A stretch of 59,896 nt of DNA from Thermoanaerobaculia bacterium (lineage in GTDB: Bacteria; Acidobacteriota; Thermoanaerobaculia; Gp7-AA8): positions 1 to 59,896 of the forward strand of contig DASZZV010000207.1 in assembly GCA_035544835.1 (NCBI GenBank). Reading direction: 5' to 3'. A model generated the notes under the pieces. The model had not been told where the DNA came from. It saw only the letters and a list, made by a program, of their open reading frames with translations, and ran no database searches. The translations under genes were made by a program, and so were the position numbers. Position 1 is the stretch's first letter; each line of letters opens with the position of its first letter. Below, piece after piece: positions 31,637 through 40,761 of the stretch.

Positions 31637-31711
31637 GCTGGCGTAGCTCAGTGGTAGAGCAGCTGATTTGTAATCAGCAGGTCGCGGGTTCGATCCCCAT
31701 CGCCAGCTCCA
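31637..31711 (+). tRNA. tRNA-Thr (anticodon TGT)
   Basis: Cloverleaf by hand: acceptor GCTGGCG/CGCCAGC, anticodon loop TTTGTAA, encoded CCA. One C-A mismatch in the T stem (GCGGG/CCCAT). Confidence 0.85.
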
Positions 31712-31714
31712 GAA

Positions 31715-31788
31715 AGGCGGATGTTGGATGTTCGATGTTAGAGATTTGCAGGTTCTAGCATCCACCATCAAGCATCCAACATCCGCCT
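31715..31788. repeat. heptamer-arm hairpin element (family B, unit GGATGTT)
   Basis: Left arm aggc ggatgtt ggatgtt cgatgtt; right arm ..catcaagcatccaacatccgcct is complementary. Confidence 0.8.
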
Positions 31789-31791
31789 CTC

Positions 31792-31878
31792 GGAGAGATT
31801 GCTGAGCGGCCAAAGGCAGCAGACTGTAAATCTGCCGGACTTCGTCCTTCGCAGGTTCGAATCCTGCTCTCTCCACCA
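31792..31878 (+). tRNA. tRNA-Tyr (anticodon GTA)
   Basis: Acceptor GGAGAGA/TCTCTCC, anticodon loop CTGTAAA, long variable arm, encoded CCA. Confidence 0.9.
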
Positions 31879-31887
31879 GTTAAAAAC

Positions 31888-31939
31888 AGATGTTGGATGG
31901 TAGATGTCAGTTCGAAGCGGTTGATTGGATCTGACATCT
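31888..31939. repeat. heptamer-arm hairpin element (family B, unit AGATGTT/GGATGGT/AGATGTC)
   Basis: Three tandem heptamers, then a 9-bp stem AGATGTCAG (31902..31910) / CTGACATCT (31931..31939). Confidence 0.65.
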
Positions 31940-31953
31940 GGGACCTGAAGTAA

Positions 31954-35973: not shown

Positions 35974-36001
35974 TTTGCAGGCGGCGGTAGCCGCCGCAAA
36001 T

Positions 36002-36098
36002 CATCCTGAGGAGTGCGGAGCACGACGAAGGATCTTTGGTGGTCAACAAGCTCACCGCGAGTGTCACCAAAGATCCTTCGCTTCGCTCAGGATGACAA
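36002..36098. repeat. family-A hairpin element
   Basis: TCATCCTGAGGAGTGCGGAGCACGACGAAGGATCT ... GAGTGTCACCAAAGATCCTTCGCTTCGCTCAGGATGACA. The right arm is identical to that at 40701..40739. Preceded by the short hairpin ATTTGC-AGGCGGC-ggta-GCCGCC-GCAAAT. Confidence 0.85.
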
Positions 36099-36328
36099 CA
36101 CGTTTTTACCTCTGTTGAATCAAAAGAAACCCGGTCCGGAAAGGGGGGGAGCGGCCCTTTCCACATGACCACAACCCAGCGAACCTCCGCGGCGCGTCGC
36201 CTGCGCCCGACCTCGCAGTTCTCATTCTGTTTTGCGTGAAGACTCGGTCTGGGAAGTCGGTTTCTATTTGCAACCACTCCCCGGTCCATAGCCTCGCGCC
36301 GAACGAACTCTAAAGGAGCAACGGCCGA

Positions 36329-39300
36329 ATGAACGGATCGATGCCTAAACAGGAGCCCGTCCGTCACGATTTCTCCAAGATCCGCAGCTATATGGCGCTG
36401 CCGAACTTGATCGACGTCCAGAGAAAATCGTACGAGCGCTTTCTCCAGATGAACCTCCTCCCCGAAGAGCGGGAGGATGCAGGACTGCAGTCCGTGTTCA
36501 CCAGCGTCTTCCCCTTCTCCGATTTCCGGGAGACCTGCTCACTCGACTTTGTCCGATTCTCGATCGGAAACTGGGAGTGCAAGTGCGGATCGCTCAAAGG
36601 ACTCGAGCATCTGCGCATGACCTGCGCGAACTGCGGATCGAAGATCATCACCGATCATCCGCATGAAGAGACGGTCAACTGCCAGAAGTGCGGCGTCATC
36701 AACAAGAACCGCGTCGAAGTCTGCGACATCTGCGGCAATCCCGTTGACCTGCAGATGAAGTACTCGGTCGAAGAGTGCCAGGAGCGCGGTATGACCTACA
36801 GCGTTCCGCTGAAGGTCACCTTCCGCCTCTTCGTTTACGACAAGGATCCCGACACCGGCGTCAAGCACATGCGCGATGCCAAGGAAGAGGAAGTCTTCTT
36901 CGGCGAGATCCCGCTGATGACCGACAACGGTACCTTCGTCATCAACGGTACCGAGCGGGTCATCGTCTCCCAGCTCCACCGCTCCCCGGGCGTCTTCTTC
37001 ACCAAGGAAGGGCCGCACGCCTTCCTGTCGAAGATCATTCCCTACCGCGGCTCCTGGGTGGAGTTCGAGTACGACCAGAAGAACATCCTCTACGTCCGCA
37101 TCGACCGAAAGCGCAAGTTCCTCGGCTCGGTCTTCCTGCGCGCCCTCGGCCTCACCACCGACGAGGAGATCCTTCGCCAGTTCTACACTCCGATCAAGGC
37201 TAAGCTCTCGAAGAGCTCCGAGAACGTCGAGCTCACTTTCGACCGCCGCGTCCTCGATCAGGAAGAGGCCAAAGAGAAGCACTCCATCCGCGGGCGCCGC
37301 GAGATCCGTCCCATCTTCGCCGGCATCAAGCTCGACAAGAAGATGGCCGACGCCCTTACCAAGCACAATGAGTACACCGCCAAGGTCGACGTCGCTGCCA
37401 TGGACAAGGCTTCGTTCCTCGGTGACGTCGTCGATCTGAACACCGGTGAAGTTCTGTTCGAGGCTGGCGATGCCGTCAGCTCCGACTGGGCCGAGATGTT
37501 GCGCGATCGCGGCATCGAGGAAGTCGACGTCATTTTCCCGGAATGGGATCTGGTCAGTGACATCCTCCTCAACACCGTTCGCAAGGACACCACCAAGACC
37601 TTCGAAGCGGCCATCATCGAGATCTACCGCCGCATGCGGCCCGGCGATCCTCCAACGCTGGAGTCAGCCAAGGCGCTGTTCGAAGGCATGTTCTTCGACG
37701 CCCGCAAGTACGACTTCTCGCGCGTCGGTCGTTTCAAGTTCAACATCAAACTCGACCTCGAGACGCCGGTCACGCAGAAGACGATGACGCCCGACGACTT
37801 CTTCGTCGTCATCAACTACCTCCTCCGCCTCCGTAAGGACGTCGGCCGGGTCGACGACATCGATAACCTCGGCAACCGACGCGTCCGCGCCGTCGGTGAG
37901 CTCCTCGAGAACCAGTTCCGCATCGGTCTGGTCCGGATGGAGCGCGCCATCAAAGAGAAGATGTCGGTGCATCAGGACATCGACTCGGCCATGCCGCACG
38001 ATCTCATCAACTCCAAGCCGGTCATCGCGGCCATCAAGGAGTTCTTCGGATCCTCGCAGCTGTCGCAGTTCATGGATCAAACCAACCCTCTGTCTGAAGT
38101 CACCCACAAGCGCCGTCTGTCGGCCCTGGGACCGGGCGGTCTGTCACGGGAGCGTGCCGGATTCGAAGTCCGCGACGTCCATCCGACTCACTACGGCCGT
38201 ATCTGTCCGATCGAGACGCCGGAAGGCCCGAACATCGGCCTCATCTCGTCGCTGGCCTGCTACGCCCGCATCAACGAGTACGGCTTCATCGAGTCACCAT
38301 ATAAGAAGGTCGAAGACGGCCGGGTTCACGATCACTACCGAGTGTTGAAGACGGGCGACAGTTCCTTCACCCTCGGTCAGATCGTCGAGAAGCGCGACCT
38401 GCAGAAGGAAAACAATCGCATTGCCAAGCTGAACGCGCACGAAGCGGGCAGCAAGAAGAAATCGCAGGCCATGCAGCTCAGCGAGGCCGAGCCCTATGCG
38501 TTCTATCTCTCGGCATGGGATGAGGAGCGCTATACGATCGCTCAGGCCAACGCCATCACCGACGAGGAAGGCAACCTCCAGCACGATCGCGTCATCGCCC
38601 GTCAGGCCGGTGACTTCGTCTCCATCGAGCGCGAGAAAGTCGACTTCATCGATGTTTCGCCCAAGCAGCTGGTCTCGGTCGCGGCCTCACTCGTTCCCTT
38701 TCTCGAGAACGACGACGCCAACCGCGCACTCATGGGCGCCAACATGCAGCGCCAGTCCGTTCCTCTGCTCCGTACCGAATCACCGTTGGTCGGCACCGGA
38801 ATGGAGAACGTAGTCGCCCGCGATTCCGGTGCAGTCGTCATCTGTAAGCGTGGTGGTTTTGTCGACCTCGTCGACTCGAACCGCATCATCGTTCGCGTCG
38901 AAGCGGAAGACGTCGAGACCGGCGAGACCAAAGAGTTCGGCGCCGATATCTATTCGCTCATCAAGTTCAAGCGCTCCAACCAGAACACCTGCATCACGCA
39001 GAAGCCGGTTGTCCGCGAAGGCCAGCGGGTCCGCAAGGGCCAGGTCCTGGCCGACGGCCCCTGCACCGATGCCGGTGAGCTGGCTCTCGGACGCAACGTG
39101 CTGGTGGCCTTCATGCCCTGGCGCGGCAACAACTTCGAGGACGCCATCCTGGTTTCCGAAAAGCTGGTCAAAGACGACTACTACACCTCCATCCACATCG
39201 AAGAGTTCGAGATCGAAGCTCGCGACACCAAGCTCGGACCGGAAGAGATCACGCGCGACATCCCCAATGTGTCGGAGTCGGCCCTGCGTGACCTCGACGA

Positions 39301-40624
39301 GTCGGGCATCATCCGTATCGGTGCCACCGTCAAGCAGGGCGACATCCTCGTCGGCAAGGTCACGCCGAAGGGTGAGACTCAGCTGACGCCCGAAGAGAAG
39401 CTTCTCAGAGCCATCTTCGGTGAAAAGGCCGGCGACGTCCGCGACGCTTCGCTGAAGACCCCTCCCGGAATCGAAGGCACGGTCGTCGACGTGAAGATCT
39501 TCTCGCGCAAAGGCGTCGAGAAGGATCTCCGCGCCAAATCGATCGAAGAGTCTGAGATCGACCGGATGAACCGCAACATTCAGGACGAGATCCGCATCAT
39601 CACCGATTCACGCAACAAGAAGATCTCTGACGTGCTCTCCGATCACAAGATGCAGCGCGACGTCATCGACTTCCGTAGCGGCGAGACGCTGGTCCGCAAG
39701 GGCGAGACTCTCGATCGCGACATGATCTCCCGCCTCAGCCGTCGCGAGCTCCTGGCTCTCCCGGTTGACGAAGAGATGCGCGAGACGATCCGCATGTTCG
39801 TCGAGCGCGCCGAAAACCGCGTCCGTGTCCTCGAGCAGAAAGCCGAAGAGCGCCGCGAAGATCTGCAGAAGGGTGACGAGCTTCCTCCCGGCGTCATCAA
39901 GATGATGAAGGTCTACGTGGCCATGAAGCGCAAGCTGTCGGTTGGCGACAAGATGGCCGGTCGCCACGGCAACAAGGGTGTCATCTCACGCATCCTCCCT
40001 GAAGAGGACATGCCGTATCTGCCCGATGGCACGCCGGTCGAGATCGTTCTCAACCCGCTCGGCGTCCCCTCACGCATGAACGTCGGTCAGATCATGGAGA
40101 CGCATCTCGGCTGGGCAGCACGCACGCTGGGTCTCTTCTTCTCCACGCCGGTATTCGACGGCGCCATGGAGGCGGAGATCAAGTCGCAGCTTCGCGCTGC
40201 CTCCCTTCCGGAGAGCGGGAAGACCTCGCTCTTCGACGGTATGACCGGCGAGGTGTTCGAACAGCAGGTCTGCGTCGGGTTCATCTACATGCTCAAGCTG
40301 TCGCATCTGGTCGACGACAAGATTCACGCCCGTTCGATCGGACCGTATTCACTCATCACCCAGCAGCCCCTGGGCGGTAAGGCACAGTTCGGCGGCCAGC
40401 GTTTCGGAGAGATGGAAGTCTGGGCTCTCGAAGCATACGGCGCTGCCTACACACTGCAGGAGCTGCTGACATCGAAGTCAGACGACGTCGAAGGACGGTC
40501 GAAGATCTACGAAGCCATCGTCAAAGGCGAGGTTCCCGATGATCCAGGCCTACCCGAGTCGTTCAACGTCCTCGTCAGAGAGCTGCAGTCGCTCTGCCTG
40601 GATGTGGAGCTGCTCAAGCAGTGA
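36329..40624 (+). CDS. rpoB: DNA-directed RNA polymerase subunit beta (with lineage-specific insertions)
   Basis: 1431 aa. Conserved blocks include 'GNRRVR..GEL', 'LSALGPGGL', 'GRHGNKGV', 'SRMNVGQ'. Carries an about 60-aa eight-Cys insertion at aa 82-141. Confidence 0.97.
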
Positions 40625-40640
40625 CGCGAGCAAAGCGAGC

Positions 40641-40761
40641 GTCATCCTGAGGAGCGCGTAAGCGCGACGAAGGATCTCCGGTGGTGACCACGACGGTCGC
40701 GAGTGTCACCAAAGATCCTTCGCTTCGCTCAGGATGACAAGCGCTTCGCTAAGGATGACAA
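40641..40761. repeat. family-A hairpin element plus an extra partial right arm
   Basis: GTCATCCTGAGGAGCGCGTAAGCGCGACGAAGGATCT ... AGATCCTTCGCTTCGCTCAGGATGACAA, then a repeated GCGCTTCGCTAAGGATGACAA (40741..40761). Confidence 0.85.

Follow-up and report, generated by a model that had tools for sequence, protein, structure and literature searches.

Hairpin-forming repeats that are interspersed between bacterial genes have been described in several forms, and two families of such repeats sit in the spacers of the tRNA-rpmG-secE-nusG-rplKAJL-rpoBC superoperon of an uncultured Thermoanaerobaculia bacterium (Acidobacteriota). The superoperon lies on a stretch of 59,896 nucleotides (GenBank assembly GCA_035544835.1, contig DASZZV010000207.1), which is referred to here as the window and is assigned to this class by homologs of its L1 and S2 proteins. 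Family A consists of inverted arrays of heptanucleotides, and family B consists of inverted doublets of a short imperfect palindrome. In the described REP/REPIN system, REP doublets form hairpins and are mobilised by RAYT tyrosine transposases (PMC3116915, PMC3337134, PMC3733652). Long simple sequence repeats (SSRs) with heptanucleotide units include the cyanobacterial STRR and the TAACTGA repeats of Beggiatoaceae, Cyanobacteria and Bacteroidetes (PMC4679880), and heptanucleotides are the most abundant of these long repeats according to Mrazek (2007), as cited in PMC4679880. MacGregor found TAACTGA to be over-represented near translation genes and inside ribosomal protein operons (PMC4679880).

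For some of these repeats, effects on RNA are established. The 5' untranslated region of Haemophilus influenzae hmw1A contains (ATCTTTC)n within a long transcribed hairpin that is cleaved by RNase III and whose length varies by slippage, and the changes in heptad number are reported to be promoted by transcription (PMC12721329). The hairpins of the Correia/NEMIS elements (CREE) are RNase III substrates, and ERIC elements alter the stability of flanking cistrons (PMC2649163, PMC2229807, PMC10969869). Repeat families that act as RNA processing or stability modules have already been documented (PMC2649163, PMC2229807, PMC12721329, bioRxiv 10.64898/2026.03.23.713779). The original prediction for this locus, made from the window alone, regarded such a role for a repeat family as undescribed, and this is contradicted by REP/REPIN, by Correia/NEMIS with RNase III, by ERIC and by the heptad hairpin of hmw1A.

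The elements of the window are best read, with reasonable but far from full confidence, as tolerated, hypervariable and largely dispensable palindromic repeats in the intra-operon spacers of one Thermoanaerobaculia lineage, with incidental effects on RNA. The window was compared with syntenic loci from independent assemblies, designated L119, L120, L122, L124 (extended by L151), L127, L138 and L154, and with two short contigs from the closest relatives, L123 (96% identical in L1) and L153 (97% identical in S2). Within the window, A or B elements occupy 11 of the 13 co-directional spacers of at least 60 nt with translation or transcription genes on their flanks and none of the 11 other spacers (Fisher p = 3e-5), where the spacer classes were assigned by hand, with frr/ispD placed among the translation and transcription spacers, and the spacers are non-independent members of one contiguous cluster. 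Seven elements lie within about 2.6 kb between tRNA-Thr and rplA in the window, and the same number in L124. The L124 contig (about 33 kb) has heptad hairpins at all seven of these sites and one degenerate copy after rplL, with no elements in eight other spacers of 128-486 nt. The local hot spot from tRNA-Thr to rplA is real, but it belongs to this one lineage and segment and does not characterise the families in general.

This pattern resembles the original prediction only in part. Ten superoperon spacers in a row were said to carry one long hairpin each, but the list names nine, two of which do not hold long hairpins. When spacer folds were scored against dinucleotide shuffles of each spacer, a long hairpin was confirmed in nine of the eleven spacers named overall (z -3.3 to -12.8), including those at rpsB/tsf (z -11.8) and frr/ispD (z -3.3). 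The copy between tRNA-Tyr and tRNA-Gly is degenerate, and the rpmG/tRNA-Trp spacer holds half a unit. Nor are the empty junctions only those that overlap or are shorter than about 60 nt, as the tRNA-Trp/secE spacer (61 nt) is also empty (z -0.6). A seventh copy of family A, upstream of rplM (18575-18666), had been missed.

Family A elements have the architecture (unit)n - loop - (reverse-complement unit)n, in which the unit is a tandem heptanucleotide. The units vary among the copies of the window (AATTGAG, GATGTTG, GAATGTT and ATTTSGR), and AATTGAG is present at three sites. With 7-nt units in at least three head-to-tail copies, family A belongs among the heptanucleotide SSRs. It shares with the published arrays an intergenic location, tandem 7-nt units, a scattered distribution among phyla, variable copy number and a tendency to abut start or stop codons. 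The published repeats are direct arrays, however, with 169 direct sets against one indirect set in BOGUAY (PMC4679880), whereas all copies of family A in the window are inverted pairs that form hairpins and not direct arrays of the STRR or TAACTGA kind. In addition, the arm order of family A is fixed, with the G-rich arm 5', and many units occur in one genome. Like hmw1A, family A uses a heptad SSR as the arm of a long hairpin, and the RNase III cleavage shown for hmw1A, a concrete instance of the type of mechanism that the original prediction had in mind, may by analogy extend to it. In hmw1A, however, one arm is repetitive, and this arm is pyrimidine-rich, lies 5' and belongs to a single adhesin locus, whereas in family A both arms are repeats and many loci in housekeeping operons are involved. 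The family A arms are fully complementary at best (100%, 31 bp, rplK/rplA) and 83-84% complementary at worst, with one further copy that is degenerate, and this spread is an age spectrum.

The original prediction proposed a comparison of orthologous spacers, and this comparison went largely against it. The structures are not conserved, being absent from the tRNA spacers (4-43 nt) and the nusG/rplK spacer (21-36 nt) of L119 and L127 and swapped elsewhere. Because L119 and L127 possess the same operon without the elements in these spacers, the elements are largely dispensable. L124 has heptad hairpins in four tRNA spacers and in rpmG/tRNA-Trp, nusG/rplK and rplK/rplA, with units mostly unlike those of the window. 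In the tRNA-Thr/tRNA-Tyr spacer its unit is AGTGCTG, and this spacer measures 15-27 nt in five other relatives. An AATTGAG-type hairpin is found between tRNA-Thr and rpmG in L122, L124 and L138 and none in L119, L120 and L127. The nusG/rplK spacer is without family B and 21-77 nt long in L119, L120, L122, L127 and L138 and holds a heptad hairpin in L124. Between rplK and rplA, the unit is AATTGAG in the window, L123 and L124, CAGTGGY in L127, GTTGTCN in L122 and GGATTGA in L138, and no element is present in L119 and L120.

Close relatives differ in the same way. The site after rplL is occupied by family B in the window and by a heptad array in the 96%-identical L123; among the others, L120 and L124 have heptad hairpins, L122 has a B-like palindrome, and L119 and L138 have only the native attenuator described below. 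In the 97%-identical L153, the hairpin before rplM is longer than that of the window and uses the unit GAATGGA, and the flanking non-coding DNA is nearly identical. The family B doublet at rpsB/tsf is common to the window and L153 and is absent in L151 and L154. At frr/ispD, L119, L122 and L138 have other heptad units, and the spacer is 2-21 nt in L124, L127 and L154. The rpoB/rpoC spacer of the relatives either measures 71-75 nt or contains a small Zn-ribbon open reading frame (ORF). This conserved ORF, of 62-64 amino acids with two CxxC pairs, is found in L119 (16239-16433), L122 (16317-16505) and L127 (16450-16641), gives a weak, sub-threshold DnaJ zinc-finger-like match, and is absent in the window, where family B is located, and in L120 and L124.

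Direct evidence of slippage comes from three samples of the L124 population (L124, L125 and L126), which are 99.97% identical over 6.4 kb and one CTCAATT unit apart in rplK/rplA. This 7-nt indel lies in the 3' arm and is the sole difference in the spacer (L124 9798-10000 compared with L125 1366-1561 and L126 356-551), so that family A changes copy number by slippage as other heptad SSRs do. The unit GGATTGA is common to two L138 hairpins that lie 7.7 kb apart, at frr/ispD (1797-2000) and rplK/rplA (9392-9563), where the window has two other units, and copies are thus more alike within a genome than across orthologous sites. Because near-identical relatives differ in unit, the heptad units must evolve fast. 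For the same reason, different units in a spacer were no longer taken as proof of independent insertions.

Family B is a REPIN-like inverted doublet. Its unit, 23-35 nt long, consists of CATCCTGAG and GAAGGATC on either side of an inner stem of 0-16 nt, and in its minimal form (ATCCT-GA-GCGAAGC-GA-AGGAT) it comprises a 5-bp stem, two G·A juxtapositions and GCGAAGC, an unusually stable DNA mini-hairpin. The loop is the 11-nt GAGCGAAGCGA, and the closing stems pair in every copy. Four doublets (20674, 33538, 36000 and 40641) and one singlet (32508) are present, and all copies are extragenic, with five B elements and three related modules in 60 kb. The singlet is orthologous in L122, L127 and L138, with TCATCCTGAG and GAAGGATC almost invariant and an inner stem that changes and still pairs. 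As with REP/REPIN, family B is extragenic, is present in several copies in the window and varies in presence between relatives, and its short imperfect-palindrome unit (about 20-40 nt) forms inverted doublets that give long hairpins, plus singlets. The heads differ, however, being TTGTC, GCGTC, AAATC or CACTC in family B, with CGTC in only two units, a minority, and no REP-type GTAG head in the B units of the window. A further difference from REP/REPIN is the conserved GAGCGAAGCGA loop with varying stems. No transposase domain turned up in the Pfam-scanned proteins of the window, several short or unnamed ORFs being outside the scan, and no flanking direct repeat indicative of a target-site duplication was evident at family B, where occupied and unoccupied orthologous spacers have diverged beyond alignment. 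Both families resemble CREE and ERIC in being interspersed palindromic repeats that are, presumably in the present case, co-transcribed with their neighbours. CREE and ERIC, in contrast, are of the miniature inverted-repeat transposable element type and are marked by defined terminal inverted repeats, by target-site duplications and by promoters and IHF sites, and no such features were evident in the window.

Families A and B stand as the original prediction drew them, but they are not the only repeats involved, as a third palindromic family in non-translation spacers shares the GAGCGAAGCGA loop of family B on another stem, CCAGTGGT/ACCACTGG. Further stem variants around GAGCGAAGCGA are found in other Acidobacteriota and in an Ignavibacteriae contig (loci L049, L116, L122 and L140). 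In several phyla, the closing stems around this conserved loop differ yet still pair, and the GAGCGAAGCGA-loop hairpin has the appearance of a shared recognition element. A direct repeat of 63 nt, whose copies (45810-45872 and 46509-46571) are 92% identical, lies upstream of two adjoining hypothetical genes and includes a small hairpin, CTAGTCATCCTGACTAG, that is similar to the head of family B.

Whether the elements act in RNA can be judged in part from their position and structure. A sigma-70-like promoter, TTGCGC-N17-TATAAG, is predicted upstream of the tRNA cluster. A generic promoter scan did not call this sequence at 31542..31570, and it has a counterpart at the same position, compared by eye and unaligned, in L119, L120, L122, L124 and L127. 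Since the first tRNA is preceded by a counterpart in five relatives, the repeats appear to lie inside one co-directional transcription unit. No U-run directly follows any A or B hairpin, and a terminator scan called none of them, with overall counts not above those of shuffles. The hairpins should therefore be read through, and a role as intrinsic terminators was rejected. The suggestion that the stems are long enough for RNase III was borne out, as perfect stems of 20, 30 and 31 bp are present against a requirement of about 20 bp or more, and most copies form longer, interrupted helices. Conservation of an RNase III site at the orthologous position was not found, as the hairpins are missing from L119 and L127 in the tRNA and nusG/rplK spacers and other families or units are present elsewhere. 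The sense and antisense folds are equally stable, with 59 and 57 G·U pairs, respectively, so that they carry no sign of selection acting on the transcribed strand.

The rplL-rpoB spacer of E. coli contains an intercistronic attenuator and an RNase III site. At the same operon position, the relatives of the window have a canonical terminator-like attenuator, TTCCGGGCGGGG..CCCCGCCCGGAA followed by a T-run (L119, L120, L122, L127 and L138 compared). While the E. coli structure is native and conserved, in the window family B replaces the attenuator stem, with the T-run CGTTTTT 7 nt downstream, and the other repeats of the window sit in spacers where E. coli has nothing comparable. In L127, the attenuator unit after rplL is triplicated in tandem. 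A second native structure precedes rplA, whose true start is probably near 34274, because L1 homologs have 233-246 amino acids. The small hairpin and ACGTAGGAGA...CTGCACTACGGAGG upstream of it have a counterpart in all six relatives, with or without the upstream hairpin and less complete in L119, L122 and L138; this is probably an L1-binding autoregulatory leader, although 34192-34268 has no Rfam match. The G-rich hairpin GGAAAGGGGGGGAGCGGCCCTTTCC upstream of rpoB is likely to be a native leader structure rather than a repeat. Overall, the native regulatory sequences (the rplA leader, the attenuator and the G-rich rpoB hairpin) are conserved independently of the repeats.

The gene map of the window was confirmed for the superoperon. 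The genes on the + strand begin with rplM-rpsI, rpsB-tsf, pyrH-frr-ispD-ispF-gltX-pyrD and a YfhO-like gene and continue with tRNA-Thr, -Tyr, -Gly and -Thr, rpmG, tRNA-Trp, secE, nusG, rplK, rplA, rplJ, rplL, rpoB and rpoC. A canonical terminator follows rpsI at 19744-19777. The coordinates of the repeats and of the other structures are collected in Table 1. Large palindromes in which no likeness to families A and B was noticed are located in non-translation spacers at 7019-7115 (29-bp perfect stem), 10787-11028 (81-nt arms with an inner palindrome) and 14321-14426 (19-bp perfect stem). ACC/GAC/ATG-rich direct repeats at 15566-16266 lie in an unannotated 1.5-kb stretch that may encode a low-complexity protein. 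In L154, the ispF/gltX spacer (15474-15886) holds a 413-nt array of degenerate GTCATCGACAACGTTGCGAAC-like repeats.

Table 1. Repeat elements and other structural features of the window (z, fold z-score of the spacer; stem, longest perfect stem in bp)
Coordinates	Strand	Feature	Location	z	Stem	Remarks
389..616	.	third palindromic family	non-translation spacer			55-nt arms, 96% complementary
18575..18666	.	family A (GAATGTT/GAATTGT)	between folD(-) and rplM(+)	-5.7		
20674..20765	.	family B, full doublet	rpsB/tsf	-11.8	15	
24869..25034	.	family A (ATTTCGG/ATTTGGG vs AAATTCG)	frr/ispD	-3.3	12	arms partly decayed, 83%
31542..31570	+	sigma-70-like promoter TTGCGC-N17-TATAAG	upstream of tRNA cluster			putative function
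31716..31787	.	family A (GATGTTG)	tRNA-Thr/tRNA-Tyr	-7.9	16	
31889..31945	.	family A, degenerate (GATGTTG-like)	tRNA-Tyr/tRNA-Gly	-1.9	9	10/200 shuffles fold equally well
32038..32128	.	family A (AATTGAG)	tRNA-Gly/tRNA-Thr	-4.9	14	arms 84% complementary
32231..32312	.	family A (AATTGAG)	tRNA-Thr/rpmG	-6.0	20	
32485..32508	+	small hairpin	right after rpmG stop			covaries in window, L122, L127, L138 (GCGYCG..CGRCGC)
32508..32543	+	family B, singlet (CATCCTGAG, inner stem, GAAGGATC)	rpmG/tRNA-Trp		5	inverted partner absent
33538..33633	.	family B, full doublet	nusG/rplK	-12.8	30	33-nt arms, 97% complementary
34094..34183	.	family A (AATTGAG x4)	rplK/rplA	-7.2	31	
34192..34268	+	native rplA leader, small hairpin + ACGTAGGAGA...CTGCACTACGGAGG	upstream of rplA			L1-binding-site-like; separate from repeat
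35974..36000	+	GC-rich hairpin	right after rplL stop			counterparts in L127, L138
36000..36098	.	family B, full doublet	rplL/rpoB	-8.4	16	CGTTTTT 7 nt after
36138..36162	+	G-rich hairpin GGAAAGGGGGGGAGCGGCCCTTTCC	upstream of rpoB			kept in all relatives
40641..40761	.	family B, full doublet, 3' end duplicated	rpoB/rpoC	-5.7	11	
59780..59836	+	third family, single arm copy	non-translation spacer			

Beyond these loci, a scan of a species-level genome collection seeded on one unit found (AATTGAG)3 in at least 118 blocks of 8 kb. Among the matches listed, to which the following counts refer, the arrays are found in Cyanobacteria, Bacteroidales, Chloroflexota, Acidobacteriota, Clostridia, Planctomycetota, Cloacimonadota and others. 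Only 2 of the 118 blocks encode a homolog of any of the window's 16 translation and transcription proteins, and one of these adjoins the array; a tRNA lies within 400 nt in 2 of the 118. Heptad elements within 150 nt of a tRNA number 3 of 217, compared with 0.3% of bases, which is not above the expectation for an intergenic location. A general link of heptad arrays to the superoperon or to tRNA genes across phyla was therefore not found. All ten (AATTGAG)3 loci examined in Acidobacteriota/Thermoanaerobaculia have non-translation neighbours, and at least four of the ten are hairpin forms. The neighbours encode MutL and an alcohol dehydrogenase; a glycosyltransferase; an amidohydrolase; UbiA; a chorismate-binding enzyme; an acyl-CoA dehydrogenase and MeaB; a hydrolase and KAS III; an epimerase and GT4; a poly(A) polymerase-family protein; and an esterase and PfkB. 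When metagenomes were screened for the hairpin form, 23 stretches were recovered, about 15 of them unique by eye. About two of these adjoin a tRNA, namely the tRNA-Thr/rpmG spacer of L138, which is another Thermoanaerobaculia, and a site between two tRNA-Ser genes, and the remaining stretches have no tRNA beside the hairpin and none of the 16 window proteins. In the genome blocks, the stop codon of the preceding gene is often adjacent to an (AATTGAG)n array or contained in it, and other heptad arrays are often found alongside.

A period of seven predominates, with 341 arrays compared with at most 17 for any of periods 5, 6 and 8-11, in a set in which at least 118 of the arrays were themselves selected for a 7-nt repeat. 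The order of the arms is also biased. The G-rich, C-poor arm lies 5' in 43 of 48 hairpins in genome blocks, 30 of 32 in metagenome blocks and 6 of 6 in orthologs, and for units unrelated to the search seed the proportion is 23 of 26. Because the element is palindromic, this order holds on both strands. A stop triplet is present in the 5' arm unit in 19 of 26 cases and in the 3' arm unit in 8 of 26, a difference that is confounded with G-richness. The arm order might possibly result from avoidance of Rho or from the placement of stops in all three frames. Searches against Rfam returned only tRNAs at the gathering score, with generic long-hairpin microRNA precursor models below threshold, and an exact-sequence literature search for either family found nothing relevant.

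Read as tolerated repeats, the inverted arrays of family A lengthen, shorten and change unit by replication slippage, and their homogeneity within a genome would be the product of exchange between loci or arms. Family B would probably owe its spread to an enzyme that recognises hairpins, for example an HUH/Y1 transposase, and its singlets would be remnants. Given their position inside a transcription unit and the lack of a U-tail, the elements are presumably co-transcribed, and as RNA they would fold into hairpins of 20-45 bp. By analogy with CREE, ERIC, REP and hmw1A, these hairpins would serve as RNase III targets or as barriers to 3' exonucleases, and the stability of segments of the mRNA and of the tRNA precursors would then probably be modulated incidentally, as with REP, ERIC and Correia elements. 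The pile-up from tRNA-Thr to rplA may reflect inherited old insertions combined with high local turnover, which could be promoted by high transcription. Several observations sit uneasily with mere tolerance. Within the window, the A and B elements are confined to the translation cluster (11/13 versus 0/11 spacers), and the segment from tRNA-Thr to rplA is saturated in two genomes, with the remaining ~30 kb of the L124 contig empty apart from the degenerate copy after rplL. The rplK/rplA, rplL/rpoB and frr/ispD spacers hold some palindromic repeat in most relatives, a pattern that selection for the mere presence of a hairpin could produce. The 31-bp arms stay perfect while their loops have diverged, and in four genomes the family B singlet before tRNA-Trp shows much stronger conservation than the sequence around it.

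These observations bear on the role in processing, attenuation or insulation that the original prediction assigned to the elements, of which the location inside a transcription unit, the long duplexes and the hot spot survive, and against which stand dispensability, fast turnover and ordinary contexts elsewhere. That the hairpins are selected RNA modules (RNase III sites, attenuators or insulators) which partition the tRNA, ribosomal protein and RNA polymerase polycistron and set differential expression is unlikely. Long perfect duplexes without terminator tails in one transcription unit would suit such modules, as would the local enrichment in the window, the recurrent occupancy of rplK/rplA, rplL/rpoB, frr/ispD and tRNA-Thr/rpmG in most relatives, and the site after rplL, where family B takes the place of the attenuator stem and the downstream U-run is kept; CREE with RNase III (PMC2649163) and the hmw1A heptad hairpin (PMC12721329) are precedents. 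However, the operon of L119 and L127 has no elements in the tRNA and nusG/rplK spacers, the family or unit at a spacer differs between near-identical relatives, the L1-site-like and G-rich rpoB leaders are separate from the repeats, G·U pairs are not biased to the sense strand, several copies are decaying, and elsewhere ordinary genes have heptad elements of the same unit beside them. The one-heptad polymorphism between otherwise identical strains and the differences in unit and length between 97%-identical relatives could also fit a tunable rheostat, in which frequent slippage of heptad number in family A sets hairpin length, RNase III processing and downstream expression in the manner of contingency loci. 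In hmw1A, a heptad arm forms part of an RNase III-cleaved hairpin and repeat changes need transcription (PMC12721329), but the arm order here is the opposite, with the G-rich arm 5'. No obvious benefit would come from phase variation in the expression of ribosomal proteins or tRNAs, many copies follow the stop codons of ordinary genes, and the single one-heptad indel seen need not alter expression, so that a rheostat is improbable.

The equally good folds on both strands, the symmetric G·U counts, the GCGAAGC in the family B unit and the enrichment in a highly transcribed segment would be expected of a role in DNA, either as cruciforms or protein-binding sites that absorb transcription-driven supercoiling or as sites of recombination or replication pausing. 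The absorption of such supercoiling has been proposed for REP/BIME elements and gyrase. This role is nevertheless very improbable, as the elements are dispensable in relatives, the candidate role has no assigned protein partner, and the chromosome-organisation roles of REP are disputed (bioRxiv 10.64898/2026.03.23.713779). The metagenomic origin and low complexity of the sequences raise the matter of an assembly or sequencing artefact, which has a negligible probability and was rejected because independent assemblies (JGI, ENA, NCBI and Logan) agree on the same element types at the same spacers with colinear flanks, and arrays of the same unit are present in complete genomes such as that of Desulfonema magnum. 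A broader proposal, which we regard as quite doubtful, would join several of these lines. Heptad-armed hairpins would form a class of element that is undescribed, spans phyla and has its arm order built in, the G-rich and often TGA-bearing arm coming first on either strand, and within operons slippage would tune RNase III processing or access of Rho. The saturation of tRNA-rpmG-secE-nusG-rplKA would then reflect selection for adjustable partitioning of tRNA and mRNA, and, as a separate matter, an uncharacterised mobilising enzyme shared across phyla could use the GAGCGAAGCGA-loop hairpin as its recognition module.

In conclusion, what appears to be new is the inverted-heptad architecture as an interspersed family, the bias in its arm order, the GAGCGAAGCGA-loop unit and the extreme density of the elements in a core operon. 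As by-products of the analysis, inverted-heptad hairpins prove to be widespread across phyla with a strongly biased arm order, and the GAGCGAAGCGA-loop hairpin with varying closing stems recurs in unrelated repeat families. If the elements are indeed tolerated repeats, the superoperon would be a natural example of a core, highly expressed operon that tolerates long palindromic insertions with fast turnover of the repeats. This would be helpful in annotation, where such elements are easily miscalled as small ORFs or noncoding RNAs, and in strain typing of uncultured Acidobacteriota. If instead the hairpins prove to be RNase III targets, the syntenic operons, with zero to seven hairpins, would provide a natural series for the study of repeat-driven tuning of ribosomal protein and RNA polymerase operons.

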